A stretch of 64,000 nucleotides of DNA, taken from IMG/VR virus record IMGVR_UViG_3300026094_000002. One strand, 5' to 3'. A model generated the notes under the pieces. It saw only the letters and a program-made list of their open reading frames with translations. It searched no databases and was not told the DNA's origin. Below are positions 12,964 through 64,000 of this stretch, piece by piece (within the stretch, counting starts at the first letter, position 1; the number at the start of each line of letters is the position of its first letter). The stretch is from a virus. Lineage: Duplodnaviria; Caudoviricetes. Both the position numbers and the translations under genes were made by a program.

Positions 12964-13046
12964 CCTTTCGCCTCCTGTATGGTGTTGATGGAAATTTTGC
13001 GTTTCATTTGTTGAAACGTAAATGACTTGTAGATGAAACGAAAAAA

Positions 13047-40800: not shown

Positions 40801-43800
40801 GACAAGATCTCGACCAGACACAGATCTGCCAAGTGCTGGGTTTGTAAATCGTGATGATGTAGATTTTCAAGTCTTTTCATTTGAAGATATAGAGTCTGAA
40901 ATATCATTTGATGAAATTGGACCCGGTAACACTGTTTGGGTTGCAAAAGATTCTGAGTTTGACTGGAATGTGTATTATGTAGGAAAGTTAAATGCACGTA
41001 TCATTCAACTTGATGACAATCTTAATGGACAATCACGAGTTACATTTTCTGCATTTCACGGATTGGTTCCCGGAGATAAAATTATAATAAAATCTTTCTC
41101 CACGGGTATTAATGGTTACTATGAAATAGAAGGTGTTCCAACTCTTGAGACGGCGTTAATTTCGTTTAGTTTCTCATCAAACCAGACACAGGAAACTGGC
41201 AATGGCATTGTTCTGACGTTTGAATCTGCAAGAGTTGAACAGCCAAGCGATATTGCAAATCTTAGTTTTTCAACCTCTTTGCGTCCCGGTGACCGTGCGT
41301 GGGTTAATAATAGTGGCGATGGCACGTGGCAAGTATTAGAAAAACAAGAACCATTTAAGTCAAACACAAAGTTAGTGCCAGAAATTGAAACAGACCAATA
41401 TGGGACAGCAATTGCACAAGGTTTTGACAATGTTGGCGTTCTGGTAGGGTCTCCAGATGGTGGCATTGACAATAGAGGACAAGTTTTTGCTTATATTCTA
41501 AATCGTGATGGTTCATATAATTCAGTTGCTCCATTATCTCTTCGTACCCCTGAGATAAAAGGGTATGGGCGGTCAATTGCCGCTGGCAACTCTAACTGGG
41601 CTATTGTAGGGGCACCAGATTCTGATGTAAACAAAGGTTATGCCGCTGCAATCTTTAAAGAAAGTTCTGCTGATCCGACTTTCCAACAAACGCAATTACT
41701 GTTAGATCCTAATAGCGACGAAGGCGACAGATTCGGCGACTCAGTTGCAATCAGCGACGATGAGCGTTGGGCGTATGTTGCTTCTCCGGGTGCAAGCCGA
41801 GTTTATGCATATGCACGAGTTGATCGGGAATCACAATTTGTCACGCACGTTGGTGACGGATCAACAACCGAATTTAGTTATGATGGAGAAATTTCTATTG
41901 GTCCAGATAACAGTGGAGATGAACTTTCAGTTATTGTCAACAACACCGTATTCTCCAGAACGGGCGGTGATTATGTAGTTAATACAACAGAAAATCTTAT
42001 TAGCTTTGCGGCTGCACCAAGTTCTGGCGAAACAATTGTAATTATAAGAAAAGAACAAATTTCATTAACATATAACAGCATTGGAAATGGCGTCAAAACC
42101 GACTTTAATATTGCTGTTATTGGAACACCAGATCCCGCTGATTTGCGTGTTTTTGTTGATAATACAGAACAAACAATTACTACCGATTATACAATAATTG
42201 GACAAACACTAAGTTTTAATACGGCACCCGATAATGATAGTACTATAACAGTCTATAATCCATCTCTTGACCAACTTATTGGTGTTAATGATTATACTGA
42301 TAGTTTCTCTGTGTTAAGAGATGGTGTTATTCTCCGTGCCGAAGTTGATTACACTTTTGATAGTAATACCAATACTATTTCATTTACAAACGGTGATTCT
42401 GACATTATTGACTCTGAGATACTAATAAGAGCACGGTCACATTTTAAACACGTTAATACTATTGAAATACCAGAGCAAACCAAGTCTTATATTTCACACG
42501 ATGATACAGTAATAACATTGGATAGTATTTCCGGTATTGAGCCACAAATGATTTTGATTGGTACTGGGTTTAATTCTGGACAATATGTTGAATCAATTGA
42601 TATAGAAAACAACCAAGTCACGCTTAATGAGTCACCAGACTCAACACCATCAGGAAATATACAGTTTAAATTAGAAAACTTTGGATCAAGCCTTGATACT
42701 ACCACAGATGGCAGACAAGTAGCAATTGGTTGTATTGGTAATGAAAAAACACCCGGACAGACTTTTGTTTTTGATAGAACAGTTGAGCGGTTTGAAATAG
42801 ATGATAAAACACAAGACGTATATACGCCACGGCGTGATACAAGTATTTCAAATACATCTGTTGTTCCAGTAAAAATCAATCAAAGATTTTTGACACCCGG
42901 AGAGATAAACTCCGTGCCGCAATTCAATTTAGGAAAAGAATATTCAGTGTTGTCAAATGCAGAAGTCAATGTCTTAGATGCTGATTTTGAACTTGGTGAT
43001 ATATTAGAAATAGAAACCGCTGAATTTTCAAAATTACAAACTTTAACTGCTGAAACCCCACAGTCAGGATCAGAATTTGGATTTAGCCTAAGCCAGTGTC
43101 CAACAAATTGTAGTTTATATATTGGGTCACCCGGGGATAGTCGTCAGGTTAATAATGGCGGATCTGCTGAGAGATTTGTAAACGAGCCAAGAATTTATGG
43201 CATAGCAACATCATCTAACTCAGACGCAGAATTGACTTCAGGAGACACGGTAAGAATCAATAACGTTGATGTAGAAGTTTCTGCTATAGATTCACACGTA
43301 GTTGCAGCAACGTATAACTCTGGAGATTTCCGCAAATCTAATGGAGAGGTATATCGTGCTGTACAAGATGTTCCGGCTGGAATATTATTGACTAATACAG
43401 ATTACTGGGAAGAGTCTTCTTGGTCTGAAGTATTTGTTAAAGACATAAATGACGCAAACATTTCAAATGTTAAAGCCACACTTGATACTCGTGGAAAAAT
43501 TGTTATAAGTGCTGTTGAGCCCAAAGCACAGACTGAATTCAATAAATTACAGATTTTGCCGGGCATTGGCACTGCGTTTACAGACCTTGGCTTTGACCCT
43601 ATACAACGAACACAAACAATATTACCACCTCGCATTCAAACAAGTGCCAGATTTGGGCACGTTGTACAAATTGACACCGAGGCTGATAACTTAGTAATAG
43701 GATCTCCCGGTGCACGATTGGTTATACCAAGTACGTGGCAGACGGAATCAGAGTTAGAGTTTGATAGTGGAGCAACGACTTTCTTTGATTCAGTTTCTGA

Positions 43801-46800
43801 AGCAGGGACTGTTTACACATTTGACTTCTTGCCAAGTTCTGTAAGTTCACCACGAAACCCCGGAAAGTTTGTTTTCGGTCAACAAGTTTTTGTTAGCGAA
43901 ATCTCTACTGGAGACAAATTTGGCACAGATGTTGATTATGTTAATGGTCGATTATTAGTTGGTGCACCAGATCGTGAATCAGGTGCTGTTTTTGCATTTA
44001 ATAATCTTGATCTTGACCCTGCGTGGCAACCAATTCACGAACAGGCAGTAGAAGTAGATAGCAAACTTATTAATACAATTTATGTTTATGATGCCGATGA
44101 CAGAAGAGTACTAAGATATCTGGACTGGATTGATCCTCTCCAAGGAAAAATACTTGGTGCTGCAAAAGAGAATATTGACTTTATCACCCCGGTTGACCCA
44201 GCAGGATACAATCAAGGAAATAATATTTCTGATTTCAATGTATGGCGTGATGAACATGTTGGACAAATTTGGTGGGATGTTACAAATTATAGGTTGACTG
44301 AGTATCACTCTGATGATATCACCTATTCAAGTAGGCGTTGGGCACAGGGGGTCACAGGAAGTCAAGTTGACGTTTACCAGTGGATTGAAAGCACTGTACC
44401 ACCTTCACAATATCAAGGTCCGGGCACACCCAAGGATAACGACTCATTCACAATAATTGGTGGTGTAGTTGATAATCAAATAATTGCTAATCGTTATTAT
44501 TTCTGGGTATCAAATACCGATTCAGTTATTGAGTCAGCAGGAAAAACGCTTGGGATAAATGCGATACAACAATATATTGAGTCCCCTCGTTCAAGCGGCA
44601 TTTCTTATATCGCTCCGATTTCCAGAAATACGTTGGGACTATTCAATTGTACTGATTTAATAAATCGTGCAGATAGCATCTTACACGTAGAATTTGATCA
44701 AATTGAAACGGATAATCAAGTACACGTAGAATATGAACTAATACCCGAGAATCGTGCTGATGGATTCATTACCGGGCAATTATATAGAAAACTTTTAGAT
44801 AGTTTGAGTGGGGCAGACACCGAGGGCAATTTGGTACCTGATGTCCAACTTCCGCCCTCTGAATTATATGGTGTTGACTTTAGACCGCGACAAAGTATGT
44901 TCCGGGATAGAGAAGCAGCATTACAAAACTATCTGAGTCAAGTCAATAATGTTCTCATAGAATACCCTGTTGTTGAATCTCGCGACTTTACTATTCTAAA
45001 TTCGGAAGACCCGATTCCCGAAGCGAATAGTGGTGAATGGAACAAAAAAGTTGAAACAACTTTAGAACTTGAATTCCAAAACTTGGACATAGTTCCAATA
45101 GGTTATCGTTATCTTGTGTTGAGTGATGACAGTGTTGATGGTTTGTGGTCAATTTATGAGGTTGACGAAAATCGCTCACTTAACCAAATAAGAATTCAAA
45201 CATTTGACACCAAACAGTATTGGAATTTTGTTGATTGGTATGCAAATGGATATTCAGATCAAACGATTTTAGACAGAACTGTAAAAACAAAACCAGATCT
45301 TTTTGCACTTGATGCAATTGATGGAGAGTTGGTACGAGTTGATAACGATGGAACAGGTCAATGGGAAATATATGTTCGGGAAAATGATTCTTGGAACCGA
45401 GTTGCAGCACAATCAGCAACAATACAGATTGATCTAACTATAGCAGATAACTCTGCTGGTAGATTTGGTTTTGATAATGAAGTCTTTGACGCTCAATTTT
45501 TTGATGAAAGACCTGTCAGAGAAACACGTCAAATTGTTGAAGCCATCAATGACGATCTATTAATCAATGATCTTGGTGTTGAAAGAAACCGTGCTTTGAT
45601 ACTACTGTTTAATTACATTTTATCAGAACAAATTACACCAGAGTGGTTAGAAAAAACCAGCCTTGTTGATGTTGATCATACAGTACGGTCCTTAGAACCA
45701 TTCCGTGTTTATCAACAAGATAATCAAACATTTGTTTCTGATTATATTAATGAAGTCAAACCATATCACGTTAAAATCAGACAGTTCAATCTAAAATATC
45801 AGGGTGAAGAATTATATCGTGGCGATATAACTGACTTTGATTTGCCAGCCGAGTGGAATCCAGAGAATAATCAATTTATTAGTCCTGTTCTGGATGACAC
45901 TGGCAGATTAAGCACCACAAGCAGCATTGATTCAGAATCTGAAGAATGGAATGATGGGAAATATTCAGAATGGTTTAATAACCGCTTTTTAGAAATTGAA
46001 TCAATATCCGTGTTCTCAGGTGGCACTGGGTACTCTGTTCCACCTGAGGTAATTATTACTGGTGATGCAGAAGTAGAAGCCAAAGCAAGAGCAAGACTAA
46101 ACGTATTAGGAGAGGTATCAAGTGTAGAAATACTTGAATCTGGTTCCGGTTATACAACAACACCATCAATCAATATAGTTGGTGGTAATGGTAGTGGTGC
46201 TCGTGTGGTTCCAATTATGAAAACACTGGGACCAAGAAACGGACTTATCACATTAAAATATGACAGATATGATTATACTCCAAACGTATCAGACTGGCAA
46301 CCAAATGTATTCTATGCTGCTGACGATTTAGTCAGATATGAAAACGAAGTATATCGTGTAGTAGAAACCAACGATAGTAGTATTTTGTTTTCTGGTGATG
46401 AGTTTGTACTTGAAAATTATGAGAGAGTATCAGCCAGTGAGTTAAGTGGGTTAGATAGAACCGCAGGTTATTATGTCCCTGCCCCGCGAACAACAGGAGA
46501 TGATATCTCCTTGTTAGTGGATGGTATAAGTTATCCCGGTGTTCAAGTATCTGCACCTGATTTCAACCAAAACACGGGTTACGATATATCTGCATTTGAT
46601 GTAACACCGTTTGATAACATTGATGTTGGACCAGAAAATGATATTTCGGTTGAATATACAGCAGATGGTTCAACTACAGTATATGAACTTGGATATCCAG
46701 ATGATGGTTTACCTACAAATATTGAGGAAGTATCTGTTTTTGTAGATGGAGTTGAGCAAGAACAAGAGGATGATTTTACTTTCAACCCCAGTATTATTAC

Positions 46801-51110: not shown

Positions 51111-52100
51111 ATGGCATACTCTTCAGGATCAACAATACTAGACGACGATTACAATATTTTCGTAACAGGAAACGCCTCTGGAACAGGAGACGACAATACC
51201 CCCAACGTGAATACAGTGTGGGGGAATGGAACAGGAAACAAAGGCTATGGACAAAGCAGTACGCTTAGTTCAGTAAGTGTTGGAAACACTATTACTGCCA
51301 CCCAATGGTCTAGTCTTTTAAATAGAATTTCGTCTATGGCAAATCACCAAGGATCTTCAATAACGGCAATATCAAACCCAACAGTTGGTGACACGATTGA
51401 AGCCTATAACGATCTTAGTTCAAATATAGATACTATTTTTAATAATAGACTAAACGCAGCAGCAAACGGAAGCGATATTACATCTGGCGGAAGTGTGTCA
51501 GGAACTACATCTTGGTATACACAAGCAGAGACAACAACCACAGTTTCATTCGCGGATGCTGACTCTGCCCGGTACTTTTTTAACGCTGGCGGAATGATTC
51601 GTTTGGACGCAATTCGATCTGGGACAAACAACAGCAAAAGCACAGAATGGAACGACCTAGCATCGGATATTGGCACTATTGCATTTACAAATGGTTCAAC
51701 GGCAACTATTGCCGGTACTACGTATTCTGGTACTGACAAGATAGGTGGTTCGGGAACAGTATCATCAATATCTGATAATACTGGGTTTTATGATCTTTCT
51801 CCCGGTGGCTCAGCAGTATCTATTTTCAAACAGTTTGCCGATAGTTCACCATACACTGCAAACTTTATTGAAATTAGTGTATCTCTTAATTCTGCATCAG
51901 ATGCTCTAACATTTATAATGACATTTCGTGATGATGCGGCAGACACAAAACAAGATAATGTTGGTAACTCATTGGATTCTGACCAAGTTCAGGGCACAAC
52001 AGGTTCTAACACAGTTGTTCGTCCACCATCTACGACACATATTTCAAATACTTGGGGTACACCAACTATTAGTGGCTCTATCAGTTATATTACATCATAA
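51111..52100 (+). CDS. Tail-fibre-associated / short fibre protein
   Basis: 329-aa S/T/G-rich protein with ARYFFNAGG motif, directly after the fibre gene. Confidence 0.55.
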   Translation: MAYSSGSTILDDDYNIFVTGNASGTGDDNTPNVNTVWGNGTGNKGYGQSSTLSSVSVGNTITATQWSSLLNRISSMANHQGSSITAISNPTVGDTIEAYNDLSSNIDTIFNNRLNAAANGSDITSGGSVSGTTSWYTQAETTTTVSFADADSARYFFNAGGMIRLDAIRSGTNNSKSTEWNDLASDIGTIAFTNGSTATIAGTTYSGTDKIGGSGTVSSISDNTGFYDLSPGGSAVSIFKQFADSSPYTANFIEISVSLNSASDALTFIMTFRDDAADTKQDNVGNSLDSDQVQGTTGSNTVVRPPSTTHISNTWGTPTISGSISYITS

Positions 52101-52122: not shown

Positions 52123-52153
52123 AAAAACACCTGACATTGACGGGTGTTTTTTT
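52123..52153 (+). terminator. Rho-independent terminator ending the structural operon
   Basis: AAAAACACCTG-N7-CGGGTGTTTTT stem followed by T residues. Confidence 0.75.
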
Positions 52154-52185
52154 GTCTGTGAATAGTAAAAATACTAACTATTCCT

Positions 52186-52494
52186 ATGGATTCAGATATC
52201 ATTTATCAACACGCAAAGGCAAGATTTGACCATGCTCGGTCTCAACAAATCTTGCGTGAAAAATACCAAGCCAAATTACAATTCGCATATAATGGAGGAA
52301 TGTGGGAGGCTGGTCCTTTATTAATCAACACACTAAACTGCATGTTAGATTCAGAAACACTCGTAATTGAAGATTTATATAAAAATCCAGTTAAAGTTAA
52401 TACACAAGAACTTTTAGAAATTGCTAAAACCCACTGGCAAGAACAAATGAACGGTTGGTTGGTTGAATACGAAGAAAACAATAAAGAAAGATGA
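52186..52494 (+). CDS. Hypothetical protein
   Basis: 102 aa; first gene of the accessory island, ATGA-coupled to the next gene. Confidence 0.75.
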   Translation: MDSDIIYQHAKARFDHARSQQILREKYQAKLQFAYNGGMWEAGPLLINTLNCMLDSETLVIEDLYKNPVKVNTQELLEIAKTHWQEQMNGWLVEYEENNKER

Positions 52495-53294
52495 AAACTG
52501 GTGCTTTACTCTTTGCCTATAACACGGGTGATACTGATTATCTAAAAATGGCGGAGTTTTCTGCTAAAAATATAAAACGGTGGTTGAACATTCCTACTAC
52601 TGTCGTCACTGATGTTGAATACAAATCATCTACGTTTGATAATATTATTGTAAATGAAAACACAAAGTCTTCCAGAAGATATTTTGATGATAGAAACTCC
52701 GTAGTAGAATGGAGGAACTCAGGCCGTTCTCATGCATATGACTTAACTCCATACGATCAAACTTTATTGTTAGATGTTGATTACATAATTGCCAGCGAAC
52801 AATTACAAACAGTATTGAATAGTTCTTGTGATTTTGTTTGCCCCGATACTGCAATTGAAGTTTCAGGAACAAAAAGCAATAATCCAACATTTGGAAAATT
52901 TCATATGAGAATGTTTTGGGCAACTGTAATAATGTTTAGAAAAACAAAGCACAGCCAAATAATATTTGAACTTATAAAAATGATAGAAAATAATTTTGAT
53001 CATTATGCCAAACTATATGGATTCCCAGAAACACCTTTTAGAAATGATTACGCACTTAGTATTGCTTTGAGTATTGCATCAGGACATTTAGAAACAAAAA
53101 AACATGCAATACCATATCCTATGATTAATATTCATCCAGAACATAATGTTAAGATGATAGACACTGATTGTTTTGAAATAACTTATAAAAAAACAACAAA
53201 AAACCGCGAAAAACTTTTACGCAATAAAATTAAAAATCAAGATGTACATGTAATGGGCAAAACATCACTGGAGAAAATAGTTGAAACCAGTTGA
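52491..53294 (+). CDS. GT-A fold glycosyltransferase-like protein (GT8-like)
   Basis: TPYDQTLLLDVDY DxD motif and FRND. Confidence 0.6.
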   Translation: MKTGALLFAYNTGDTDYLKMAEFSAKNIKRWLNIPTTVVTDVEYKSSTFDNIIVNENTKSSRRYFDDRNSVVEWRNSGRSHAYDLTPYDQTLLLDVDYIIASEQLQTVLNSSCDFVCPDTAIEVSGTKSNNPTFGKFHMRMFWATVIMFRKTKHSQIIFELIKMIENNFDHYAKLYGFPETPFRNDYALSIALSIASGHLETKKHAIPYPMINIHPEHNVKMIDTDCFEITYKKTTKNREKLLRNKIKNQDVHVMGKTSLEKIVETS

Positions 53295-54108
53295 TGATAA
53301 AGGTTATTTAATCACCGCAATAAAGAGTGAAACAACTGATTATCTAACATGTGCCCGGGCATTGGCAAAAAGTATTCGGTATTGGCAACCGGAATCAAAA
53401 ATTTGTCTTCTTACAAATTACGAGCAAGTTGAGAACGATAGCGTATTTGATTATGTAAAAGCGTTTCGGTATTCAATTGACGAGACTAATCCATTTGCAA
53501 ATGATTGGCAAATTTTCTTCTGTAGTCCGTTTCACGAAACAATAAAATTAGAATCTGATATTGTTTTAACTGGTTCAATAGAGCATTGGTGGACACACTT
53601 AAGAAAACGCGATGTTGTTATATCACAAGGATGCAGGAACTTTTATGGACATTGGTCTAAAGAAAGGTTTTACCGCCGGTTATTTGATCAAAACAATTTG
53701 CCTGATGTGTATAATGCAATTACATACTGGAGAATGAGTAAGTTTTCTAAAGAATTCTTTGCTCAAGTCAGACATATTTTTGATAACTGGGATAGTTATT
53801 ACAAATTATTATCTGGAGTTGACAAAGACTTGGTTCCAGACACAGATCTTGTGTATTCAATTGCTGCTGTCATGGTTGGAGAAGAAAATGTAACACTGCC
53901 AAATGCAGAATATCCAAGTTTTGTTCATATGAAAGGAAAGCACAATAATTTCCCCGGTGAAGATTGGACTCGGCATTTGGTATGGGAGTTAGATGAAGGA
54001 CAATTGCGAATTAATACATTTTCTCAACAGCAGCCTGTTCATTATCATGAGAAAACATTCTCACATAAAATAGAGGAACACTATGACCAACTTTTGGCAA
54101 GGTCTTGA
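53281..54108 (+). CDS. Glycosyltransferase-like protein, paralog of the upstream gene
   Basis: SPFHETIKLESDI aligns with TPYDQTLLLDVDY; TTG start behind GGAG. Confidence 0.55.
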   Translation: MKPVDDKGYLITAIKSETTDYLTCARALAKSIRYWQPESKICLLTNYEQVENDSVFDYVKAFRYSIDETNPFANDWQIFFCSPFHETIKLESDIVLTGSIEHWWTHLRKRDVVISQGCRNFYGHWSKERFYRRLFDQNNLPDVYNAITYWRMSKFSKEFFAQVRHIFDNWDSYYKLLSGVDKDLVPDTDLVYSIAAVMVGEENVTLPNAEYPSFVHMKGKHNNFPGEDWTRHLVWELDEGQLRINTFSQQQPVHYHEKTFSHKIEEHYDQLLARS

Positions 54109-54427
54109 AGAATTTAACCAACAAGAAAACAAACCGGTTGAAATAGAGTTTCGTTTATATTATAATGAGTATGGTTATCCGTTGTTTTATACAACAGAAA
54201 AAGTGTCTGGGAAATATATCGTTATAGACCGAGACACTTATGTTCGTGGAGATTACCAAAACATCAAGGTGAAAGATGGTCGTATTTTACAACAAAACCC
54301 CACTGATTCAATAAAGTTAGTACATGATGATTCGGCGGGAACTTGTTGTTTAAAAAATGACATTACACTAATTGACGAGTCTGGACAGGGACAATATTGG
54401 AAATTAAAAACACATGAATATCGTTGA
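54083..54427 (+). CDS. Hypothetical protein
   Basis: 114 aa, GAGGA RBS, overlaps both neighbours. Confidence 0.7.
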   Translation: MTNFWQGLEEFNQQENKPVEIEFRLYYNEYGYPLFYTTEKVSGKYIVIDRDTYVRGDYQNIKVKDGRILQQNPTDSIKLVHDDSAGTCCLKNDITLIDESGQGQYWKLKTHEYR

Positions 54428-55337
54428 TATTGCAGATTTGGATTGTATATTTTTAACATATGACGAGCCCAAGAAAGAAGAATTTTGGACTATTGTAAAA
54501 AACACAGTGCCATGGGCAACCCGCGTTGATGGCGTAAAAGGCTCTGATGCAGCACACAAAGCAGCAGCAGAAGCCAGCGAAACTGACCGCTTTATTTTAA
54601 TTGATGGTGACAACCTACCAAATCCAGATTTCTTTGACTTGCAGTTAGAATTTAAAAACGAGCAACAGGAACAAGCAGTTTTTAGATGGAGAGCAAGAAA
54701 TAACATCAACGGATTAATGTATGGAAACGGCGGCATAAGTTCTTGGACAAAAGATTTTGTGCGAGAAATGAAAACTCACGAAAACTCCGATGGTTCTGAC
54801 AAGACCTTAGTAGAGTTTTGTTTTGATGACCGTTATTGGGCAATGCATGACTGTTATTCTACAACATATCCCAACGGTTCGGAATTTCATGCATGGAGAG
54901 CAGGATTCCGCGAAGGTGTTAAAATGTGCCTTGACAGAGGATATTGCCCTTCTGTCTCTGAATTCCGTGACAGAGTACATGATAGAAACCTTGACCACCT
55001 AAATATTTGGCAAAATGTTGGTTTAGATGTTGAATACGGTGCTTGGGCAATTGCCGGTGCTCGTCAGGGAACATTTTTAACAATGTTAGATAATTGGGAT
55101 TACAGAAATGTTCAGGATTTTTCTTACCTCGCTGATTTTTGGAATAGCGAAGTGCAATCTAAAAATCCGCATGATTTGATAAGTGAGTTTGGTGAACGCC
55201 TATGCCAACAATTAGATTTAACTGATAACTTACTTGATGAAAACGCCAGTAAATTTTTTAAGTATCACTATCGTCCAAATTGGAAAAACATTGGACCTAT
55301 GGTAACCGAGCGTCAAGCAATTACTGGTGTCGTGTGA
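54414..55337 (+). CDS. GT-A fold glycosyltransferase-like protein
   Basis: FLTYDEP, VDGVKGSDAAHKAAA and FILIDGDN (DxD) motifs. Confidence 0.55.
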   Translation: MNIVDIADLDCIFLTYDEPKKEEFWTIVKNTVPWATRVDGVKGSDAAHKAAAEASETDRFILIDGDNLPNPDFFDLQLEFKNEQQEQAVFRWRARNNINGLMYGNGGISSWTKDFVREMKTHENSDGSDKTLVEFCFDDRYWAMHDCYSTTYPNGSEFHAWRAGFREGVKMCLDRGYCPSVSEFRDRVHDRNLDHLNIWQNVGLDVEYGAWAIAGARQGTFLTMLDNWDYRNVQDFSYLADFWNSEVQSKNPHDLISEFGERLCQQLDLTDNLLDENASKFFKYHYRPNWKNIGPMVTERQAITGVV

Positions 55338-56209
55338 CCGATTCTCAAAAGCCGACTCTTCCTTTTGTTGAAACCATGCTAACTCAAGCGTGTAATCTTT
55401 CTTGCAAAGGTTGTACAAACTTTAGCGATCTCAGTCACAAGGGGTATGTCACATGGGCAGAAGGAAAAGAATGGCTAACCGAATGGAAACAGCGTATAGA
55501 GATCCCAGACTTTGGCATCATGGGTGGCGAACCACTAATAAACCCTGAGTATAAAGATTGGCTTATTGGTGTTAGAGAGATGTTACCAGATAGCCAAATA
55601 AGATTTACTACCAATGGATTATTACTAGAAAAACACTGGGATGTATTAGATGTTATACAAGACATTGGTAATACAGTTTTTAAAATAACTGTTCATGTGG
55701 ATGACAAAAAATTAGAAAACACGATCCAAAAAATATTTGAAAAATATGACTGGGAACCAGTATTTGAATTTGGAATTCATCGTTGGGCCACAAAAAACGG
55801 GCTGCGGTTTCAAATAAACCGCCCGGACAAATTTATTAAAACTTTTAAAAATGATTATTCTCACATGTCGCCATGGCATGCTAACCCAAAGGATGCATTT
55901 GACAACTGTATACAGCAGACATGCCCTCTATTGCATAATGGAAGAATTTACAAGTGTAGCACTTCTGCTTTAATAAAAGACACACTAAGTCGTTATGACT
56001 TTCCAAATTGGAAAGAGTGGGAGCCATACATGTCAGAAGGAATACATTGGACAAGTGATGATACCCAAATTGACACTTTTATTAATAACTTTGGCAAGCC
56101 AAATAAAATATGTGCCCAATGCCCATCAGCCAGTCAAACAGATTCTATAGTTGACCACAAGATATATGTAAGTACCCGCAAAGTGAAAAAGTATATTACT
56201 AATGAGTAA
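55334..56209 (+). CDS. Radical SAM protein
   Basis: CNLSCKGC, MGGEPL, TTNG and C-terminal C...YKCS...CAQC; GTG start overlapping the upstream TGA. Confidence 0.85.
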   Translation: MTDSQKPTLPFVETMLTQACNLSCKGCTNFSDLSHKGYVTWAEGKEWLTEWKQRIEIPDFGIMGGEPLINPEYKDWLIGVREMLPDSQIRFTTNGLLLEKHWDVLDVIQDIGNTVFKITVHVDDKKLENTIQKIFEKYDWEPVFEFGIHRWATKNGLRFQINRPDKFIKTFKNDYSHMSPWHANPKDAFDNCIQQTCPLLHNGRIYKCSTSALIKDTLSRYDFPNWKEWEPYMSEGIHWTSDDTQIDTFINNFGKPNKICAQCPSASQTDSIVDHKIYVSTRKVKKYITNE

Positions 56210-57623
56210 AAATAATTCAGGCGATGAAGTAGATAACAACTTCAAGTCAAAATTTCTTTCTGATGCCGAAAAAATGAAGGAAAAGTTGGACGATGTCAGT
56301 CCGTCTATGTGTCTTGCTAAGTGGAAGCAAGTTAGTCTTCACTTAACAACTGGTCACAACAATAGTTGTTATCATCCTCCATTGCATAAAATTGATGCCA
56401 GTGAAATAACAAAAAATCCTGCAGCATTGCATAATACTCAACACAAAAAACAACAGCGTAAGTTAATGCTGGGAGGCACTCGTCCAACGGAATGTAGTTA
56501 CTGTTGGGCAATGGAAGATAATAATAAATTGAGCGACCGACATTATCGCTCTGGAGAACCGTGGGCTGCAGAACATTTTGATAATGTAGTCAATGCAGAC
56601 TGGGATGCTGATGTAACTCCAAGTTATGTTGAGGTAAATTTTAATTCTGCTTGTAATTTAAAATGTAGTTATTGTAGTCCGCAGTTTTCTACTACATGGA
56701 TGGAAGAAATAGATAAGCACGGTGCATATCCTACGTCTGTACCACATAATGCTCCTGAATATTTTAACGGTGATAGACGCAGAATTCTAAACCGTGAGTC
56801 TAATCCTTATGTAGACGCATTTTGGAAGTGGTGGCCAGACTTGTATCCAGAACTAAAGCATTTTAGGATGACAGGTGGTGAACCTCTTATGGATAAAAAT
56901 ACCTATCGTGTATTTGACCATGTTTTGGAAAATCCAAAATCTGATTTGCATCTAGCGGTGACAAGTAACTTTTCTGTCAATCAAAAATTATGGGACAAGT
57001 ACAAACAGTATGTAAGCAAGTTGTGTGAAGGTGAAACAATAGAACATTACATGCAATATGTCAGTGTTGATACATGGGGTGCCCAAGCAGAGTATGTTCG
57101 AAATGGGCTAGATTTTGGTCTACTATGGGATCGTGTTCATGAATTTTTAAATGATATTCCATACAGAAATTCTCTTACGTTTATCATAACTATGAACAAT
57201 CTATCTGTTCCTAATCTGGATAAACTTCTAGAGGGAATTTTAGAACTAAGAAAAACATATAGCGACACTTATCAGAGAATCTGGTTTGATACGCCAGTGT
57301 TGCACACACCAAAATGGCAAAGTATGCAAGTGCTTCCAGATAGCTATGCGTTTAAATTAAAAAAAATTAAACAGTGGATGGAAGAAAACATTGAAACAGA
57401 ACAATCTAGATTCCATGGGTTTAAGGATTACGAAATCAATAGACTAGATCGTGATATTGCATGGATGCAAGAAGAATTAAACGAAGAAGACAAAAAGCAG
57501 AGAATGGCTGATTTTTATAGATTTTTTTCTGAGCACGATTCCAGACGTTCAACAAATTTTATAGAAACTTTTCCAGAGATGTCAGAGTGGTGGCAACAGT
57601 GCAGGTACTCTGCAAATGCATAA
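56202..57623 (+). CDS. Radical SAM protein with N-terminal twitch/SPASM-like Cys domain
   Basis: CLAKW...SCYHPP...CSYCW followed by CNLKCSYC and TGGEPL. Confidence 0.85.
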   Translation: MSKNNSGDEVDNNFKSKFLSDAEKMKEKLDDVSPSMCLAKWKQVSLHLTTGHNNSCYHPPLHKIDASEITKNPAALHNTQHKKQQRKLMLGGTRPTECSYCWAMEDNNKLSDRHYRSGEPWAAEHFDNVVNADWDADVTPSYVEVNFNSACNLKCSYCSPQFSTTWMEEIDKHGAYPTSVPHNAPEYFNGDRRRILNRESNPYVDAFWKWWPDLYPELKHFRMTGGEPLMDKNTYRVFDHVLENPKSDLHLAVTSNFSVNQKLWDKYKQYVSKLCEGETIEHYMQYVSVDTWGAQAEYVRNGLDFGLLWDRVHEFLNDIPYRNSLTFIITMNNLSVPNLDKLLEGILELRKTYSDTYQRIWFDTPVLHTPKWQSMQVLPDSYAFKLKKIKQWMEENIETEQSRFHGFKDYEINRLDRDIAWMQEELNEEDKKQRMADFYRFFSEHDSRRSTNFIETFPEMSEWWQQCRYSANA

Positions 57624-59346
57624 TACTTTTTCTTACGAAAATATAACAGAATTTCAAATTGAGGTAACCACACATTGTAATGCTGCTTGTCCACAATGTC
57701 CTAGGAATATTAATGGTGGAGAGACAAACCCATACCTTGAGGTTCAACATCTCAGTAGAGAAGTAATTGATTCTACTTTTGACGAATCTTTATGTAACCG
57801 CCTAAAACAAATATTTTTCTGTGGAAGTTACGGTGACCCGATTGTTCATCCTGAGTTTTTGAATATAATAAAAGATTTTAGAAAAAAATCTGATACCTTG
57901 TGGATTTATATTCATACCAATGGTGGAGTAAGAAATACAGAGTGGTGGAAAGAACTTGCTGAGACTATTGGCGATTATGGAAAAATTGATTTTAATATTG
58001 ACGGGCTAGATGATACGAATCATTTATATAGAAGAAATGTATCATTTGATAAAGCAATGGAAAATGCAAAAGCATTTATAACTGCCGGAGGCAAAGCACA
58101 ATGGAATTTTATTGTGTTCAAACACAACGAACACCAAGTTGACACTGCAAAAATGATGAGTAATTTGTGGGGATTTGAGAATATTGTCTTTCGTGGTACT
58201 GGGAGATTTCTTGATCATAAGACACTAGAAAAATCTGATGAGTGGAAGGTCACCCCAAAAAGAGGAACGGAGTACTATCTTAAACCAACAGATATTAAAA
58301 GGTATTCAAATCAAAGCATTGAAAATTTGCCAAATCTAAAAAAACAATACACAGATATTAAAGACTATTTTGATAAAACGCCAATAAAATGTGATGCTTT
58401 AACTGGAAAAAAGGCAGTAATAACAGCAGAAGGATTAGTTCTGCCTTGTAATTTTTTTGAACATAATTTATATGATGCGAGGTTCAAAGACGAAAGTGTA
58501 ATGCCCCGGGCAAACGAATTGCATTATGATGAAAACGGCAATAATCAAGTTGAAGAATTTATTAAAAAGTACGGAAAACAGAATCTAAGTATATATCACA
58601 ATTCATTAAAAACTATATTCAAAAATCCGTTTTGGGATGATCTTATAGATTCATGGAATAAAGATATTGACAATGGAAGATTATTTGAATGTGCATTTAC
58701 TTGTGGACAGAAATTAACTAAAACATGGGATCAAAATAAAACAGTGGCTAATACATATAGATATTATATTACAGGTGATAACAGAGGTTTAGGAAAGGCA
58801 TTAAAAGAACATTTCTACGGTGATGGCTCTAGCAGAAGCACAGGATATGATATAACTAATCCAGAGCATATCAAATTAATTGCAAAAGAATCATTGCATT
58901 ATGATGTTTTTATCAATAATGCATTTGATGGTCCACCAGATGAAGATTGGGCAAATTTTGCTCAGATTAATCTTCTTCATGCAGTATTTGATGAATGGAA
59001 ATTACATGAAAAAACTGGATGGATATTTAATATTGGTAGTATAGCAGAAAAAGCAATTGTTGCAGCAGAGCCAAAATGGGAAAGATACAGAGTAGCAAAG
59101 AGTGCATTGAGTTATGCCAGCAAACAATCAAGTACTGCTTTTAAAAATAATCTTGTAAATTTTAAGACAACACTAATAACACCTGACAGGTTAGACACAG
59201 AATTATCAAGATCAAAGCCAACATGGACTGGTAATGGCATCTCTTGTGATGATATTATCAGGTTTATAGAATATTGCACATCAATATCTTCTAACACGGT
59301 AGTTGACGAAATCTCATTATCGGTTAACTTTGATTACCAAAACTAA
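57616..59346 (+). CDS. Radical SAM protein fused to a short-chain dehydrogenase/reductase domain
   Basis: CNAACPQC, CGSYGDP and PCNFF...CAFTC, then TGDNRGLG, INNA and YRVAK (YxxxK). Confidence 0.8.
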   Translation: MHNTFSYENITEFQIEVTTHCNAACPQCPRNINGGETNPYLEVQHLSREVIDSTFDESLCNRLKQIFFCGSYGDPIVHPEFLNIIKDFRKKSDTLWIYIHTNGGVRNTEWWKELAETIGDYGKIDFNIDGLDDTNHLYRRNVSFDKAMENAKAFITAGGKAQWNFIVFKHNEHQVDTAKMMSNLWGFENIVFRGTGRFLDHKTLEKSDEWKVTPKRGTEYYLKPTDIKRYSNQSIENLPNLKKQYTDIKDYFDKTPIKCDALTGKKAVITAEGLVLPCNFFEHNLYDARFKDESVMPRANELHYDENGNNQVEEFIKKYGKQNLSIYHNSLKTIFKNPFWDDLIDSWNKDIDNGRLFECAFTCGQKLTKTWDQNKTVANTYRYYITGDNRGLGKALKEHFYGDGSSRSTGYDITNPEHIKLIAKESLHYDVFINNAFDGPPDEDWANFAQINLLHAVFDEWKLHEKTGWIFNIGSIAEKAIVAAEPKWERYRVAKSALSYASKQSSTAFKNNLVNFKTTLITPDRLDTELSRSKPTWTGNGISCDDIIRFIEYCTSISSNTVVDEISLSVNFDYQN

Positions 59347-59347
59347 T

Positions 59348-60691
59348 ATGAGTATGAATCCAGATTTAAAATTTAAAAAAGAGGTATTAGACAAAAAAAG
59401 TGAAAGTTTTTGTGCGGCTAAATGGTACAATGCTACTATATGGTTAGGGTCTGGTATGACAACGAGTTGTCACCATCCACCAGCCCATCATGTATCCGCT
59501 GATGATGTAAAGAAAAATCCAAAACTTCTTCATAATACTGATCAAAAAAAGAAAGACAGACAGCAAATGATTGCCGGTGAGCGACCACCGGGTTGTGAAT
59601 ATTGCTGGAAAATAGAAGACATGGAAAAAGATGCTATAAGTGATCGTGTCTATAAAACAAAAATATATTCACAAAAAGAAATTGATGATGCTTTCAATAT
59701 TCCAGTCAATGAAGATGTTGATTTAAAAACATTGGAAATTAGTTTTGATAGAACATGTAACTTTGCGTGCTCTTACTGTAACCCTGCGTTTTCTACAACA
59801 TGGGTCAAGGACATCAAGAAAAACGGGTCATATGGTGGGCTACAATCTGATGGTAGAAATCACTTTACTCATACACATGATTCTGCACAACTTTTTAAGT
59901 TTAAAGATACAAATCCGTATGCTGAAGCATTCATGCAATGGTGGGAATCTGATTTGCATAGAACCCTGCAGGAACTGCGAATAACTGGTGGTGAGCCTTT
60001 ACTATCTGGATATACATGGCAGTTGTTTGATTGGTTTAACGAGAACAAAGGTAAAAGTAATACTAGGCTGGCAATTAATTCTAATCTTGGGATAAATCGC
60101 AAAGAGGTTGACAGGTTATTGGATGCAACACAGAATGTTGAACTAGACTTATATACCTCAAATGAATCCATGGGAACACACGCAGAATACATCCGTGATG
60201 GTCTTGAGTGGCAGCAATGGATTGGCAATCTTGAGTACTTGCTAGAAGGCAAACAACTTCGTGGTCTACATTGTATGTGTACTATTAATGCATTATGCTT
60301 AGAAAGTCTGGATGAATTTTTGGATCTAATGTTATACTATAAACAGAATTACGGCAAAGAAGCAGTTAATTTTTCCCTAAATATTCTAAGATTTCCAAGT
60401 TTCCAAAGTGCACTTGTTCTTCCTGATGAAATAAGACAGTCTCGGGGCGATAAATTACAACAATGGTTTGACAAGAACAGTTCGTCAGAATTTTTGCATG
60501 AAATGGAACTAAATCAATTACAGCGATTAATTGACTACCTTGATATTGTAAAAACGCCGCATAGTGAAAGTTTTGAACTTCCAAAGTTGCGTAATGATTT
60601 TAAAAAATTCTTTGAGCAATATGATACAAGACGTGGAAAGAACTTTGCTGATACATTTCCAGAACTAAAGGATTGGTATGAATCTTTATGA
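59348..60691 (+). CDS. Radical SAM protein with N-terminal twitch/SPASM-like Cys domain
   Basis: FCAAKW...SCHHPP...CEYCW, CNFACSYC and TGGEPL; start set at ATG 59348, just after the upstream stop. Confidence 0.85.
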   Translation: MSMNPDLKFKKEVLDKKSESFCAAKWYNATIWLGSGMTTSCHHPPAHHVSADDVKKNPKLLHNTDQKKKDRQQMIAGERPPGCEYCWKIEDMEKDAISDRVYKTKIYSQKEIDDAFNIPVNEDVDLKTLEISFDRTCNFACSYCNPAFSTTWVKDIKKNGSYGGLQSDGRNHFTHTHDSAQLFKFKDTNPYAEAFMQWWESDLHRTLQELRITGGEPLLSGYTWQLFDWFNENKGKSNTRLAINSNLGINRKEVDRLLDATQNVELDLYTSNESMGTHAEYIRDGLEWQQWIGNLEYLLEGKQLRGLHCMCTINALCLESLDEFLDLMLYYKQNYGKEAVNFSLNILRFPSFQSALVLPDEIRQSRGDKLQQWFDKNSSSEFLHEMELNQLQRLIDYLDIVKTPHSESFELPKLRNDFKKFFEQYDTRRGKNFADTFPELKDWYESL

Positions 60692-61692
60692 CTGTACAAG
60701 TAGAGGTTAATGACAATCATGATTTTTGGTTTCATAATGAATCAATAAATCAAATAATCTCAGAACTTATTAACAATGGGCGTGTAACCATAAACTTTAA
60801 TACAGAAGGGCCGTGTGTAAAATCAATGGGACTTTATGAGTTTCTTGAAAATATATCAAGCAATTTAAACATACCTCATAATAATATAGAAATACGAACA
60901 CACAATCAAGTAGAATACCACCCAACATTTAAAATAACTAAACTTCCTCTGGCACATTCTCTGCCCACTGTTCAAAATGAATTGTTTTTTGATGAAAACA
61001 AGCATATGAAGAGTTTTAGTGATAAATCTTTTAAAAAATTTGCTTGTTTTGTTGGAAGAAATTCATGGGATAGGTTACGGATTTCTAGCAGACTTTATAA
61101 AGAATATAAAGAAGAAAGCATCCAAACATATCATTTAAATATAGATGATAAAAAGTCCCTTGAAAGAAGTATTCTTGGTGTTGATACTATTATTAGCAAT
61201 TCTGCTAGTATTGACACTGCGAAAGATGCTTTAAACTTTTTGACAGAATGTCCTTTTAATGGACCAGATAATATAAATCAATATCCGATAACAGTTGATT
61301 CTAATTTAAACATTGATAGTGAGTATTATCGTTTTTTTCTAGAAGTTGTGTGTGAAACTTATATCAAGGGAAATACATTTTTCCCTACAGAAAAAACGTG
61401 GCGTCCTATTGCACTTAAAACCCCATTTGTTGTCAATGGGCCAGTTGGCTTCTTAAAGAATTTAAAGAAATTGGGATTCAAAACATTTGATAGGTGGTGG
61501 GAAGAATCTTATGATTATAATGGGCATGAAGCGAGAATAGAAAAGATTTTTAAAATTATAGATTATATTTCTACTCTATCAATATCAGAATTAAATACCA
61601 TGTATAATGAAATGCAAGATGTTCTAGAGCATAATTATCAGATTCTTTATAAATTAACACTAGAAGATTTTAAAAAAGTATTTCATTATTGA
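60688..61692 (+). CDS. Putative glycosyltransferase-like protein (GT10-like C-terminus)
   Basis: EVVCET...FPTEKTWRPIALKTPF...LKKLGFKTFDRWWEESYD; paralog of 5516-6505. Confidence 0.5.
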   Translation: MTVQVEVNDNHDFWFHNESINQIISELINNGRVTINFNTEGPCVKSMGLYEFLENISSNLNIPHNNIEIRTHNQVEYHPTFKITKLPLAHSLPTVQNELFFDENKHMKSFSDKSFKKFACFVGRNSWDRLRISSRLYKEYKEESIQTYHLNIDDKKSLERSILGVDTIISNSASIDTAKDALNFLTECPFNGPDNINQYPITVDSNLNIDSEYYRFFLEVVCETYIKGNTFFPTEKTWRPIALKTPFVVNGPVGFLKNLKKLGFKTFDRWWEESYDYNGHEARIEKIFKIIDYISTLSISELNTMYNEMQDVLEHNYQILYKLTLEDFKKVFHY

Positions 61693-61710
61693 TTATTAGG
61701 GATTTATTTT

Positions 61711-61953
61711 ATGATTAAAAACATGAAAGACCACTTAAAAAACAGCAGCATGACATATACATACCATATGCTTCACGCTTGTCATTACGGTTTTAGGTTG
61801 TTGTGGGCGGGATTTAAAAGTATTATTCATGGAATTTTCCCACTAGTATGGAAATATGATGGTCCTAGATCGATAATTAAAATGTATAGAGAATTACGCC
61901 GACATAAACACATCCGTAAAATGATGGATGAAGATACCGATGAGCAGAAATGA
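61711..61953 (+). CDS. Small hypothetical protein
   Basis: 80 aa; HLK...MTY..HM.HA...IIHGIFP pattern. Confidence 0.65.
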   Translation: MIKNMKDHLKNSSMTYTYHMLHACHYGFRLLWAGFKSIIHGIFPLVWKYDGPRSIIKMYRELRRHKHIRKMMDEDTDEQK

Positions 61954-62521
61954 ATTTTTTGCGATATCTTTTGATACTTCTATATTAAATGATTTAACAC
62001 AATATTCAAATCTTCCAGAAGTTAATGTCATAAACCCGATTGACTTTTTAAATCAGAGCAAAGTTGATAATTCTAAATACTTCATTAATTTAGTAACACA
62101 AGATTTTGATTTAAGAAAACAAATTTCTCATCATATGGATACTGTTAAGTGTAAAAGATTTAGCATTATTCACCATCAATCTTATGTAGAGGGATCAGAA
62201 ATTGGTGATGGCTCATTTATATATCCCAATGTAACAGCATATCCTAAATCAAAAATAGGAAAAGACGTTATTATACAATCTAATAGTAGGATTTCTCATA
62301 ATGCAACAATTGATGATGGGTGTTTTATTGGTGGTCTTACGAATATTTCTGGATCAGTGACTGTTGGTTCCTTCTGTAAAATATTCCCGTGCTGCAATAT
62401 AGTTGATAAAGTTAATATTGTTGATGATGTTACATTGGGAACTAGAAGCACAATAAGAAAAAATATTACAGAAAGTGGAACATATTCAGAATTACCAAAC
62501 AAAGTTAAAAAGATTAGATAA
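61940..62521 (+). CDS. Hexapeptide-repeat O/N-acetyltransferase (NeuD/PglD-like)
   Basis: Left-handed beta-helix repeats (IGDGSF, IGKDVI, ISHNAT, IDDGCF, VGSFCK) after an N-terminal alpha/beta domain. Confidence 0.75.
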   Translation: MSRNEFFAISFDTSILNDLTQYSNLPEVNVINPIDFLNQSKVDNSKYFINLVTQDFDLRKQISHHMDTVKCKRFSIIHHQSYVEGSEIGDGSFIYPNVTAYPKSKIGKDVIIQSNSRISHNATIDDGCFIGGLTNISGSVTVGSFCKIFPCCNIVDKVNIVDDVTLGTRSTIRKNITESGTYSELPNKVKKIR

Positions 62522-62523
62522 GA

Positions 62524-63813
62524 ATGACATACAATTATAATAGTACTGAACCAGTAAAAATTTCTAGTGATGATTTATCAGAGCGACATAAAGAATTAGT
62601 AACTGAAAGTAAAACTTTTTGCATATATCCTTGGATACATTTACATGCTTATCCAACGGGAGAAGCGTTCCCCTGTTGTCATGCAGAAATGAAAGAAGGT
62701 CCAGTTGGAAATTGTAAAGAGAATACTTTAAAAGAAATTTGGAATTCTAAGGAAATGAAAAATCTTCGGAAAGATATGTTAAATGGGACACCAAATTCCT
62801 ATTGCACAAGATGCTATGAACAAGAAGATTCTGGGTTTTTCTCTGGTCGCCAAAGTGCTAACAAACATCATGGCCATCATATAGACAGAGTTGATGAAAC
62901 TAACGAAGACGGTTCATATGACGAGTTTGCTATGACCTATTGGGATATAAGATTTAGCAACCTTTGTAATCTTAAATGTCGTAGTTGTGGTCATATATTT
63001 TCTAGCAATTGGTATAGCGATCAAGCAAAACTAGCCGGTGAAGACTGGAAGAAACATAATAAAGCACTTAACTTTGCTGGACGATGGGAAACCGATGTAT
63101 GGGAGCAACTTGTTGAGCACTTAGATTATGTTGAACAAATTTACTTCGCTGGTGGCGAGCCACTGTTAATGGAAGAACATTATCGCATTTTAGACGAATT
63201 GGAACGACGTGGAAGATTTGATGTTCGTTTAATTTATAACAGTAACTTTACAGAAACCAGTCTCAAAGGTCGTTCAGTTTTTGATTATTGGAAAAAGTTT
63301 GACTCTGTTGCCGTTGGTGCAAGTTTGGATGCCTCTGGAGAAAGAGCAGAGTATATTAGAAAAGGGACTAAGTGGGATAAGGTATTAAGAAATCGTGAAG
63401 AAATGTTGGAAACATGTCCTGAGGTTGATTTTTATATTTCACCAACGCTTTCAATAATGAATGCATGGCATTTGCCCGATTTTCATCGTGACTGGGTAGA
63501 AAGAGGCTTTATCCGTGCCCAAGATCTTAATGTTAACATCTTACAAGATCCAGTGCATTATAGAATAGATATTGCTCCAGATGCGTATAAGCAACAATTA
63601 AAAGAGAAGTATGAAGAGCATTTAAAATGGTTGCGACCATTTGATAAACTTAATCGGGCCTCTGTGGGGTTTGAAAGTGCTATATCTTTCATGATGTCTA
63701 CCAATAATCAACATCTGATTCCTGAGTTTTGGGCACGTACAAGACAACTAGATGAAATTAGAAAAGAAGATATTTTAGACATATTACCAGAACTAAAGGC
63801 TATAGCGGTTTAA
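62524..63813 (+). CDS. Radical SAM protein with N-terminal SPASM-like domain
   Basis: FCIYPW...PCC...GNCKENTLKEIWNS...CTRC, then CNLKCRSC and AGGEPL. Confidence 0.87.
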   Translation: MTYNYNSTEPVKISSDDLSERHKELVTESKTFCIYPWIHLHAYPTGEAFPCCHAEMKEGPVGNCKENTLKEIWNSKEMKNLRKDMLNGTPNSYCTRCYEQEDSGFFSGRQSANKHHGHHIDRVDETNEDGSYDEFAMTYWDIRFSNLCNLKCRSCGHIFSSNWYSDQAKLAGEDWKKHNKALNFAGRWETDVWEQLVEHLDYVEQIYFAGGEPLLMEEHYRILDELERRGRFDVRLIYNSNFTETSLKGRSVFDYWKKFDSVAVGASLDASGERAEYIRKGTKWDKVLRNREEMLETCPEVDFYISPTLSIMNAWHLPDFHRDWVERGFIRAQDLNVNILQDPVHYRIDIAPDAYKQQLKEKYEEHLKWLRPFDKLNRASVGFESAISFMMSTNNQHLIPEFWARTRQLDEIRKEDILDILPELKAIAV

Positions 63814-64000
63814 TGAAAATTCCTCATGAAAAGTTTTGTGTTTTGCCTTGGGTTAGTATGGAGACTAGCCCTACTGGAACTGTAAGACCATGCTGTTTGG
63901 CTGAGGATGAAATTGCTGATGATAATGGCAACCCATTTGAACTTGCTAGTGCACCATTTTCTCAAATTCAAAATAGCAATCATATGAAAACTCTCCGCAG
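63813..64000 (+). CDS. Further radical-SAM/SPASM paralog, truncated by the window edge
   Basis: MKIPHEKFCVLPWVSMETSPTGTVRPCC matches the N-terminus of the preceding gene; the CxxxCxxC motif would lie outside the window. Confidence 0.7.
   Translation, partial: MKIPHEKFCVLPWVSMETSPTGTVRPCCLAEDEIADDNGNPFELASAPFSQIQNSNHMKTLR

Follow-up and report, generated by a model that had tools for sequence, protein, structure and literature searches.

A fibre-proximal cassette of glycosyltransferase-like and N-twitch radical-SAM genes in a jumbo phage as a candidate glycan-tailoring operon

Virus-encoded glycosyltransferases glycosylate the virions of mycobacteriophages and chloroviruses, and the enzymes involved (capsid and tail glycosyltransferases of mycobacteriophages, A64R of PBCV-1) are soluble GT-A proteins whose genes adjoin structural genes. 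To our knowledge, neither radical S-adenosylmethionine (radical-SAM) enzymes nor a carbamoyl and acetyl tailoring set is known from those systems, and we know of no glycan pathway that uses five to seven radical-SAM enzymes. Here we analyse a 64,000-nt stretch of DNA from an uncultured tailed phage (IMG/VR record IMGVR_UViG_3300026094_000002), called the window throughout, in which a cassette beginning at position 52186 likewise encodes soluble GT-A-like enzymes next to structural genes, together with an array of radical-SAM enzymes. Our reading, to which we give roughly even odds (about 0.5), is that this cassette is a separately transcribed operon of soluble enzymes that build a glycan and modify it through radical reactions.

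Parts of this pattern have been seen before. Pelagimyophages carry a variable host recognition cluster, fibre-proximal as here, with GT8 and lipopolysaccharide (LPS)-type genes, radical-SAM cassettes and also curli genes, for which modification of the O-chain was proposed (Zaragoza-Solas et al., PMC7029224), and a T4-like environmental genome was reported to contain 12 radical-SAM genes plus iron–sulfur (Fe-S) assembly genes (Nishimura et al., PMC5332604). Both reports are at the level of annotation, and the present locus belongs to a different phage, a jumbo phage of 305 kb related to the PA5oct/Atu_ph07/RsoM2USA group. Our literature search found no paper defining or testing the core cassette described below (A, B and C plus N-twitch radical-SAM genes), and none on radical-SAM enzymes in virion glycosylation. 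An earlier sequence-only reading of this DNA had called the locus the best candidate there for an undescribed system; it is indeed uncharacterised, but radical-SAM/GT8 cassettes and a T4-like genome rich in radical-SAM genes were already on record. We regard the pattern as glimpsed earlier, never defined or characterised, and as belonging to virus-encoded glycosylation. The pairing of radical-SAM enzymes with glycosyltransferases is probably a real but unstudied route to a chemically unusual sugar coat.

The cassette and its enzymes

From position 52186, 14 open reading frames (ORFs), all on the + strand, overlap or abut with junctions of −26 to +18 nt, in agreement with the single operon proposed from the letters. 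We label them A, B, C and D for the glycosyltransferase-like and related genes, T1–T5 for the N-twitch radical-SAM genes, and R1 and R2 for radical-SAM genes of other types. A metagenome contig (L092), with 100% identity to the window across 11,477 nt, extends the operon by about 5 kb past the window edge.

The CX3CX2C motif is found in R1 (55334–56209, the start being taken from the L092 gene call; CNLSCKGC), T1 (56202–57623; CNLKCSYC), R2 (57616–59346; CNAACPQC), T2 (59354–60691; CNFACSYC) and T3 (62524–63813; CNLKCRSC). These are the five complete CxxxCxxC proteins counted in the sequence-only reading, and its sixth, cut paralog is T4, of which the window holds the 5′ end (63813–64000). On L092, T4 is complete (402 amino acids (aa), CNLKCRIC) and is followed by T5 (436 aa), both with the same motif, bringing the operon to seven radical-SAM genes. 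PF04055 is above its cut-off in R1 (3.9e-14), R2 (1.7e-12), T2 and T3, while T1 stays below it (21.4 vs 29.5). The curated cut-off of NF033640 (N_Twi_rSAM), 170 bits, is exceeded over model positions 1–398 by T1 (324 bits), T2 (314.1 bits) and T3 (431.6 bits, the best family match in the cassette), and five of the seven radical-SAM proteins, T1–T5, are members of this family. R1 and R2 score about 30 bits against the same model, hence are non-members and represent different radical-SAM types.

What sets the T proteins apart is their N-terminal part. In the N-twitch alignment, invariant C52, C94 and C97 (a CxxC and an upstream cysteine) precede C148/C152/C155, and a GGEP motif is invariant as well; the SPASM profile PF13186 covers residues 33–98 of T3 (8.8e-13) and 9–62 of the cut T4. 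The T proteins carry, as predicted from these alignments, an auxiliary (twitch) cysteine cluster N-terminal to the radical-SAM core. T1–T3 share the N-terminal cysteine cluster, CX3CX2C and GGEP with NF033640 at large, and in this operon the family is present as five paralogs, mutually 20–30% identical and each conserved across phages. Because they have diverged and yet each has been kept, T1–T5 probably have separate roles.

The radical-SAM enzymes BtrN, anSME and MoaA also combine a radical-SAM core with one auxiliary Fe-S domain, and BtrN, a twitch-domain enzyme, oxidises a sugar-like secondary alcohol before transamination. A putative SDR (short-chain dehydrogenase/reductase) domain is encoded near the T genes. 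The auxiliary domain is N-terminal here instead of C-terminal, and the T proteins match these families weakly (E 1e-5 to 1e-8, well short of the cut-offs). We found no solved structure, characterised member or paper on function for NF033640, and phmmer searches of T3 and R2 against the PDB matched nothing. T3 has 7788 homologs at E ≤ 1e-10. In about half of its closest homologs (P0018 and many others, 545–579 aa), an extra N-terminal stretch of ~125 residues without Pfam match is present, perhaps a genuine domain, perhaps the result of faulty gene calling.

The three GT-A-like ORFs named in the sequence-only reading find support of different kinds, A through its model and Foldseek, B as a paralog of A, and C through a moderate model. 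The AlphaFold model of ORF A (52491–53294), built from a 46-sequence alignment, reaches a predicted local distance difference test score (pLDDT) of 95.5 and a predicted template-modelling score of 0.92. Searched with Foldseek against the PDB, it gives 390 structural matches at E ≤ 1e-3, including glycogenin, UGGT, alpha-1,3-galactosyltransferase and GlyE (E 5e-7 to 1e-5, probability 1.0); the superposition on glycogenin spans ~230–250 columns with a TM-score of 0.42–0.45, ~13% identity and E 5e-7. From this model we confidently predict that ORF A is a retaining GT-A enzyme of the GT8/glycogenin type, with a D95-x-D97 motif whose two aspartates are invariant in the alignment. Glycogenin, UGGT and GlyE are protein-glycosylating enzymes.

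ORF B (53281–54108) is paralogous to A (hhalign 99.3%, E 2e-20). Compared with glycogenin and the GT8 enzymes (and likewise UGGT of GT24 and GlyE), A shares both fold and DxD, whereas B has an ExD instead (E91-x-D93). Neither is matched by the GT8 profile PF01501 or any other Pfam profile even at E 5, and among the 120 homologs listed for A none has a Pfam domain. Across Pfam, NCBIfam and PHROGs, phrog_1903 is the sole match of B; A, C, D and the two small conserved proteins (102 aa, 52186–52494; 114 aa, 54083–54427) match nothing there even at E 5.

No other gene of the cassette is as well conserved as ORF C (54414–55337), whose mean column identity is 79%. Its model is of moderate quality (pLDDT 77) and combines a GT2-like GT-A domain with a helical C-terminal domain. 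Residues 4–147 match GT-A structures (PcManGT, PBCV-1 A64R, TarP, RmlT and STIV A197), the named AFDB cluster matches are GT2-like, and the strand-end motifs TYDEP and LIDGDN (DGD) are of the GT2 type, with no match to PF00535 in Pfam. Kinship between A and C was considered and rejected (hhalign probability 4%), and profile searches of A, C and D against PDB sequences returned only noise. A, B, C and D each fall into large families, those of A, C and D being almost exclusively viral in the protein Atlas.

The remaining genes look like accessories. R1 is a small radical-SAM protein of variable occurrence. R2 is a radical-SAM protein (TIGR04317, 4e-17) with C-terminal auxiliary cysteines, fused to the SDR domain, its C-terminal ~190 residues (~383–575), in which the motifs TGDNRGLG, NNAF and YRVAK are visible (~385–520). 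The SDR assignment of the sequence-only reading probably holds on these motifs, profile matches being weak (NF005672, 3.1e-5; PF00106, 0.015, 15.3 bits vs a cut-off of 26.6). The fusion is rare, with one 586-aa representative (P0362), and the SDR also exists as a standalone 196-aa protein (P0386). The NeuD/PglD-like acetyltransferase probably also holds, as a hexapeptide acyl- or acetyltransferase of the NeuD/PglB/VioB kind (61928–62521): Hexapep PF00132 passes its cut-off with 63.4 bits, and the best NCBIfam match, TIGR03570, covers positions 39–200 of 202 at E 3.4e-25, below its cut-off (88.8 vs 160.8 bits). Just before it lies a small DUF6356 protein (61711–61953; PF19883, 7.7e-14).

ORF D (60688–61692) belongs to an orphan phage family of variable position in the cassette, with the motif ETY..FPTEKTWRP..TPFVV. 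The proposal that it is GT10-like finds no support beyond a motif: the resemblance to the alpha-1,3-fucosyltransferase motif is only local (..TEK.. aligned), hhalign of the D family against six GT10 proteins (PF00852) from Bacteroidota gives probabilities of 0.1–0.9%, and the Atlas feature score, 0.79, is at chance level. No GT10 gene was found in three metagenome-assembled genomes (MAGs) or in control genomes, and tblastn of D against phage records gave zero matches. Elsewhere in phages, D-like domains are fused to Epimerase/GDP_Man_Dehyd or MTS methyltransferase domains; these fusions tie D to nucleotide-sugar chemistry, although they do not name its reaction. ORF D is a candidate nucleotide-sugar enzyme or glycosyltransferase on these grounds.

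Just outside the window, after T5, L092 encodes a 361-aa ORF, a 38-aa ORF and a 501-aa carbamoyltransferase of the NodU/CmcH type (PF02543 and PF16861); the L003 ortholog passes both cut-offs with 129 and 173 bits, respectively. Beyond it lie three convergent genes whose C-terminal domains are paralogs of D (blastp 1e-8 to 1e-15), which makes four D-type genes in the locus. A check of 26 proteins, which took in the cassette itself, what follows it on L092 and the three fibre-like ORFs, found no membrane-type hydrophobic segment, and the ~20-kb locus has no flippase, polymerase, ligase or lipid-carrier glycosyltransferase (no Wzx, no Wzy). The cassette enzymes are expected to be cytoplasmic because they are soluble and lack hydrophobic segments.

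Upstream, the placement directly after the tail-fibre genes stands as far as adjacency goes, but the cassette is set off from them by a terminator-like hairpin (52123–52151, + strand; 11-bp stem and T-run) that follows the last fibre-like gene (51111–52100), and by a promoter-like stretch (52152–52185, + strand) upstream of the first cassette gene. An equivalent GC hairpin is found at the matching place in relatives, in many of the upstream regions displayed. Of 65 unique upstream regions from relatives, 64 have a TAyAaT hexamer that ends 5–7 nt ahead of the ATG (the window version is degenerate, TAAAAAT), and 42 have a −35-like element 15–19 nt further up, these being consensus matches only. 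Since the −10-like hexamer lies so near the ATG, by another count in 60 of the 65, a leaderless or nearly leaderless mRNA is possible for the first cassette gene of the relatives (L008–L087). The exact TATAAATA, a T4-type late promoter motif, occurs seven times in the window. Six of the copies (1391, 2815, 4846, 5460, 17207 and 24140) stand a short way upstream of a structural ORF and on its strand; no exact copy exists past 24147, in the 40 kb from 24154 to 64000, which includes the region upstream of the cassette. Taken together, these elements suggest that the cassette is transcribed as its own unit, perhaps with host sigma-70, and is more than the tail of a late fibre operon.

Occurrence in other phages and in bacteria

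A search of IMG/VR with ORF C yielded 404 stretches, from which 80 loci, ~65% identical and on contigs of up to 347 kb, were kept; all window proteins were then mapped onto 87 loci. Homologs of A, B and C are each present in 83 of the 87, of the 102-aa protein in 82, of the 114-aa protein and T3 in 79, and of T1 and T2 in 77. The dominant order, found on ~80 contigs, is fibre genes, 102-aa protein, A, B, 114-aa protein, C, T1, T2 and several T3-like genes. Occurrence of the accessories is very different: D has homologs in 21 loci, R1 in 9 (where it usually adjoins a D-type gene), R2-SDR in 1, and the NeuD-like and DUF6356 proteins in none.

A minimal form of the cassette exists in a cultured phage. 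In Ralstonia phage RsoM2USA (344 kb), ORF353–348 have the order A-B-x-C-T1-C′, with identities of 31% for A, 28% for B, 38% for C and 37% for the T1-type radical-SAM protein, plus a small ORF and a second C-like gene. These genes lie just downstream of a giant structural protein and the virion proteins ORF356–361; all of them are annotated as hypothetical, and the cassette has no annotation in the paper on this phage. Vibrio phage K566 (255 kb), which is unrelated, has four N-twitch radical-SAM genes, with two Pfam GT8 genes and one GT4-like gene lying between them.

NF033640 is rare in Bacteroidota: of 401 sampled genomes, 8 are positive at E 1e-20 and 4 pass the cut-off. The genes are often in tandem there (up to four copies). 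Proteins encoded next to them include GDSL-like acylhydrolases, an epimerase, a UDP-glucose dehydrogenase and a carbamoyltransferase that shares 34% identity with its phage counterpart; glycosyltransferases are represented by GT2 (in one case joined to a methyltransferase), by GT4 and by a weak match of the GT11-like kind. Five bacterial loci have clear N-twitch genes, and two of these encode, within 1–2 genes of the radical-SAM gene, a type IX secretion system (T9SS)-secreted protein with a Peptidase_S74 (endosialidase-chaperone) domain, a domain type known from phage fibres. The proteins with both a Peptidase_S74 and a T9SS sorting domain come from two separate genomes (L089, 5199–6665; L103, 12076–14604); phmmer of these bacterial proteins against the phage fibre proteins gave zero matches.

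Genome scanning with a single N-twitch protein gave four MAG loci. A 148-kb contig from a Haliscomenobacter MAG (L088) was discarded as a bacterial locus, as it carries the same phage cassette (T1 64%, T2 65% and T3 69% identical); most likely this is phage DNA that was put in the bacterial bin, and it may be a weak lead to a Saprospiraceae host. An Elusimicrobia MAG (L091, 1–16926) has at least 10 consecutive radical-SAM genes, including SPASM types, a B12-binding type, two N-twitch genes and one fusion to TPR repeats, with no glycosyltransferase among the ORFs scanned.

The conserved co-occurrence on which the idea of a pathway depends was found in the ~80 related contigs, in RsoM2USA, in K566 and in Bacteroidota.

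What the cassette may do

The recurrence of N-twitch radical-SAM genes with glycosyltransferase genes in four independent settings (the related contigs, RsoM2USA, Vibrio phage K566 and Bacteroidota) is our strongest argument that the radical-SAM enzymes act on sugars or glycoconjugates. A phage pathway that builds and tailors a sugar had been proposed in the sequence-only reading, and the GT-A folds, the acetyltransferase, the SDR domain and the carbamoyltransferase are consistent with it; the enzymes by themselves do not choose among virion, host surface and DNA as the place of the product, which the proposal had named together. We favour an acceptor made by the phage in the cytoplasm because all the proteins are soluble, A and B look like GT8-type enzymes that glycosylate proteins, and the cassette is locked to the genes of Ser/Thr-rich fibres. 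The fibre protein encoded at 51111–52100 has 30% Ser + Thr. The fibre-like S74 proteins next to the bacterial N-twitch genes point in the same direction.

We hypothesize that the core of the pathway consists of GT8-like A and B, GT2-like C, the two small proteins and the five N-twitch radical-SAM paralogs, and that the small radical-SAM protein, the radical-SAM–SDR fusion, the D-type enzymes, the NeuD-like acetyltransferase and the NodU/CmcH-type carbamoyltransferase would be lineage-specific accessories. The glycosyltransferases would add sugars to an acceptor produced in the infected cell; the likeliest acceptors are proteins of the virion surface whose genes lie directly upstream, be it the Ser/Thr-rich fibre or another. 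By analogy with BtrN, each twitch-type radical-SAM enzyme would abstract a hydrogen from a sugar carbon, giving keto, epimerised, deoxy or cross-linked sugars, which could then be reduced (SDR), transaminated, acylated (NeuD-like) or carbamoylated.

A bolder version of this proposal, which we put forward tentatively and would not bet on, is that NF033640 is a dedicated glycan-tailoring class, working one-to-one with glycosyltransferases and editing the protein-linked glycan of phage fibres and of secreted fibre-like proteins in Bacteroidota. If true, C–H oxidations, epimerisations or C–C and C–O cross-links would result in a glycan coat of a new kind, edited by radical chemistry, that influences host recognition or shields the fibres.

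Several points weigh against glycan assembly on a virion protein. Bacterial GT8 enzymes commonly make LPS cores. The K566 array has homologs of the lipid A enzymes PagP and LpxC 1.7 kb downstream (L001, 22026–23292), which points to the host envelope. The promoter-like element in front of the cassette is nearer to the sigma-70 type than to TATAAATA, and judging by it the genes may be expressed before the fibres. Finally, SPASM and twitch radical-SAM enzymes act on peptides and proteins more often than on sugars (PMC11002830).

The most serious of the alternatives, in our view unlikely, is remodelling of the host envelope, in which LPS core, O-chain or capsule would be altered so that superinfection is blocked or progeny are kept off debris. 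It would be served by the usual LPS-core role of bacterial GT8 enzymes, by the nearness of LpxC and PagP genes in K566, by a sigma-70-like promoter compatible with early expression and by the location of the bacterial homologs in polysaccharide-type loci. Such a role was also proposed for the GT8-rich host recognition clusters with radical-SAM cassettes (PMC7029224). However, the lack of membrane proteins and of the flippase, polymerase, ligase and lipid-carrier glycosyltransferase in the ~20-kb locus is hard to fit to it, the cassette is locked to fibre genes in ~80 contigs and in RsoM2USA, and the phage appears to be lytic and T4-like.

Less likely again is that the radical-SAM enzymes modify a protein directly, in the manner of peptides that are made on ribosomes and modified after translation (RiPPs): a fibre protein or a small conserved ORF product would be epimerised, cross-linked or oxidised in a formylglycine-like way, with the glycosyltransferases acting in parallel or later. 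The preference of SPASM and twitch enzymes for peptides noted above is a point in its favour, along with the weak matches of T3 to the anaerobic sulfatase maturase and to sactipeptide maturases, and arrays of radical-SAM paralogs are typical of RiPP clusters. The Elusimicrobia array with no glycosyltransferase among the scanned ORFs could be read in this way, and so could the S74 fibre-like proteins close to bacterial N-twitch genes in two genomes. But thioether links are excluded by the lack of any cysteine in the fibre proteins, the small ORFs appear to encode folded proteins without a leader/core pattern, and N-twitch genes are tied to glycosyltransferase genes in four independent settings.

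Synthesis of a free small molecule, such as an aminoglycoside-like or nucleoside-sugar metabolite, seems improbable to us. The gene set does echo aminoglycoside pathways (a BtrN-type radical-SAM enzyme, a TobZ-type O-carbamoyltransferase, an acetyltransferase, an SDR and glycosyltransferases), every enzyme is soluble, and ‘antibiotic-synthesis-like’ genes are reported for a cyanomyovirus (PMC12801897); against this, we saw neither a cyclitol synthase nor a gene for export or resistance, GT8/glycogenin-like enzymes would be atypical there, and the constant adjacency to fibre genes is left unexplained. Most improbable of all is hypermodification of DNA, with phage bases glycosylated and tailored to evade restriction: despite soluble enzymes and an early-type promoter, the locus has no hydroxymethylase, base kinase or DNA-binding domain, it lies in the structural and not the nucleotide-metabolism region, the bacterial homologs are in glycan loci, and DNA glycosyltransferases are not known to be GT8-like. 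Glycosylation of DNA does occur in phages, and a radical-SAM enzyme takes part in some pathways of thymidine hypermodification (PMC5889632, PMC8989533).

The phage and its biology

The window comes from a T4-like jumbo myovirus, with a gp20-type portal (PF07230, 1e-101) that is ~50% identical to the portals of PA5oct, Atu_ph07, XaC1 and relatives, and a gp23 capsid protein (2e-99). It also encodes SbcCD-like nucleases and baseplate hub and wedge proteins, and its tail-sheath-sized ORF has no tblastn match. The same sequence recurs on metagenome contigs, the longest of 305 kb, from runs that carry the labels soil, lake water and aquatic metagenome, and megablast of the cassette locus against 50,697 phage records gave zero DNA matches. 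Between the baseplate wedge gene and the three fibre-like ORFs lies a single ORF of 4662 aa (34871–48859, + strand), the counterpart of which in RsoM2USA is ORF361, a >288-kDa virion protein.

A full SufB/SufD-type Fe-S assembly protein is encoded on the − strand between the portal and prohead genes (11500–13050; PF01458, 3e-79), and shares 66.5% identity with the gene product annotated as sufB in Microcystis jumbo phage MaAM05. This homolog may be a plausible supplier of Fe-S clusters for so many radical-SAM enzymes, and the cassette would in turn account for Fe-S assembly genes in such phages.

NF033640 has thousands of environmental members, and the substrate of a single one would annotate them all. 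The cultured RsoM2USA, with its minimal cassette, makes the question directly testable. If the host envelope is what the cassette remodels, it would constitute a new route to superinfection exclusion; if its product decorates the fibres, it would add a new layer of control over host range or stability in the abundant jumbo phages of lakes and soils.

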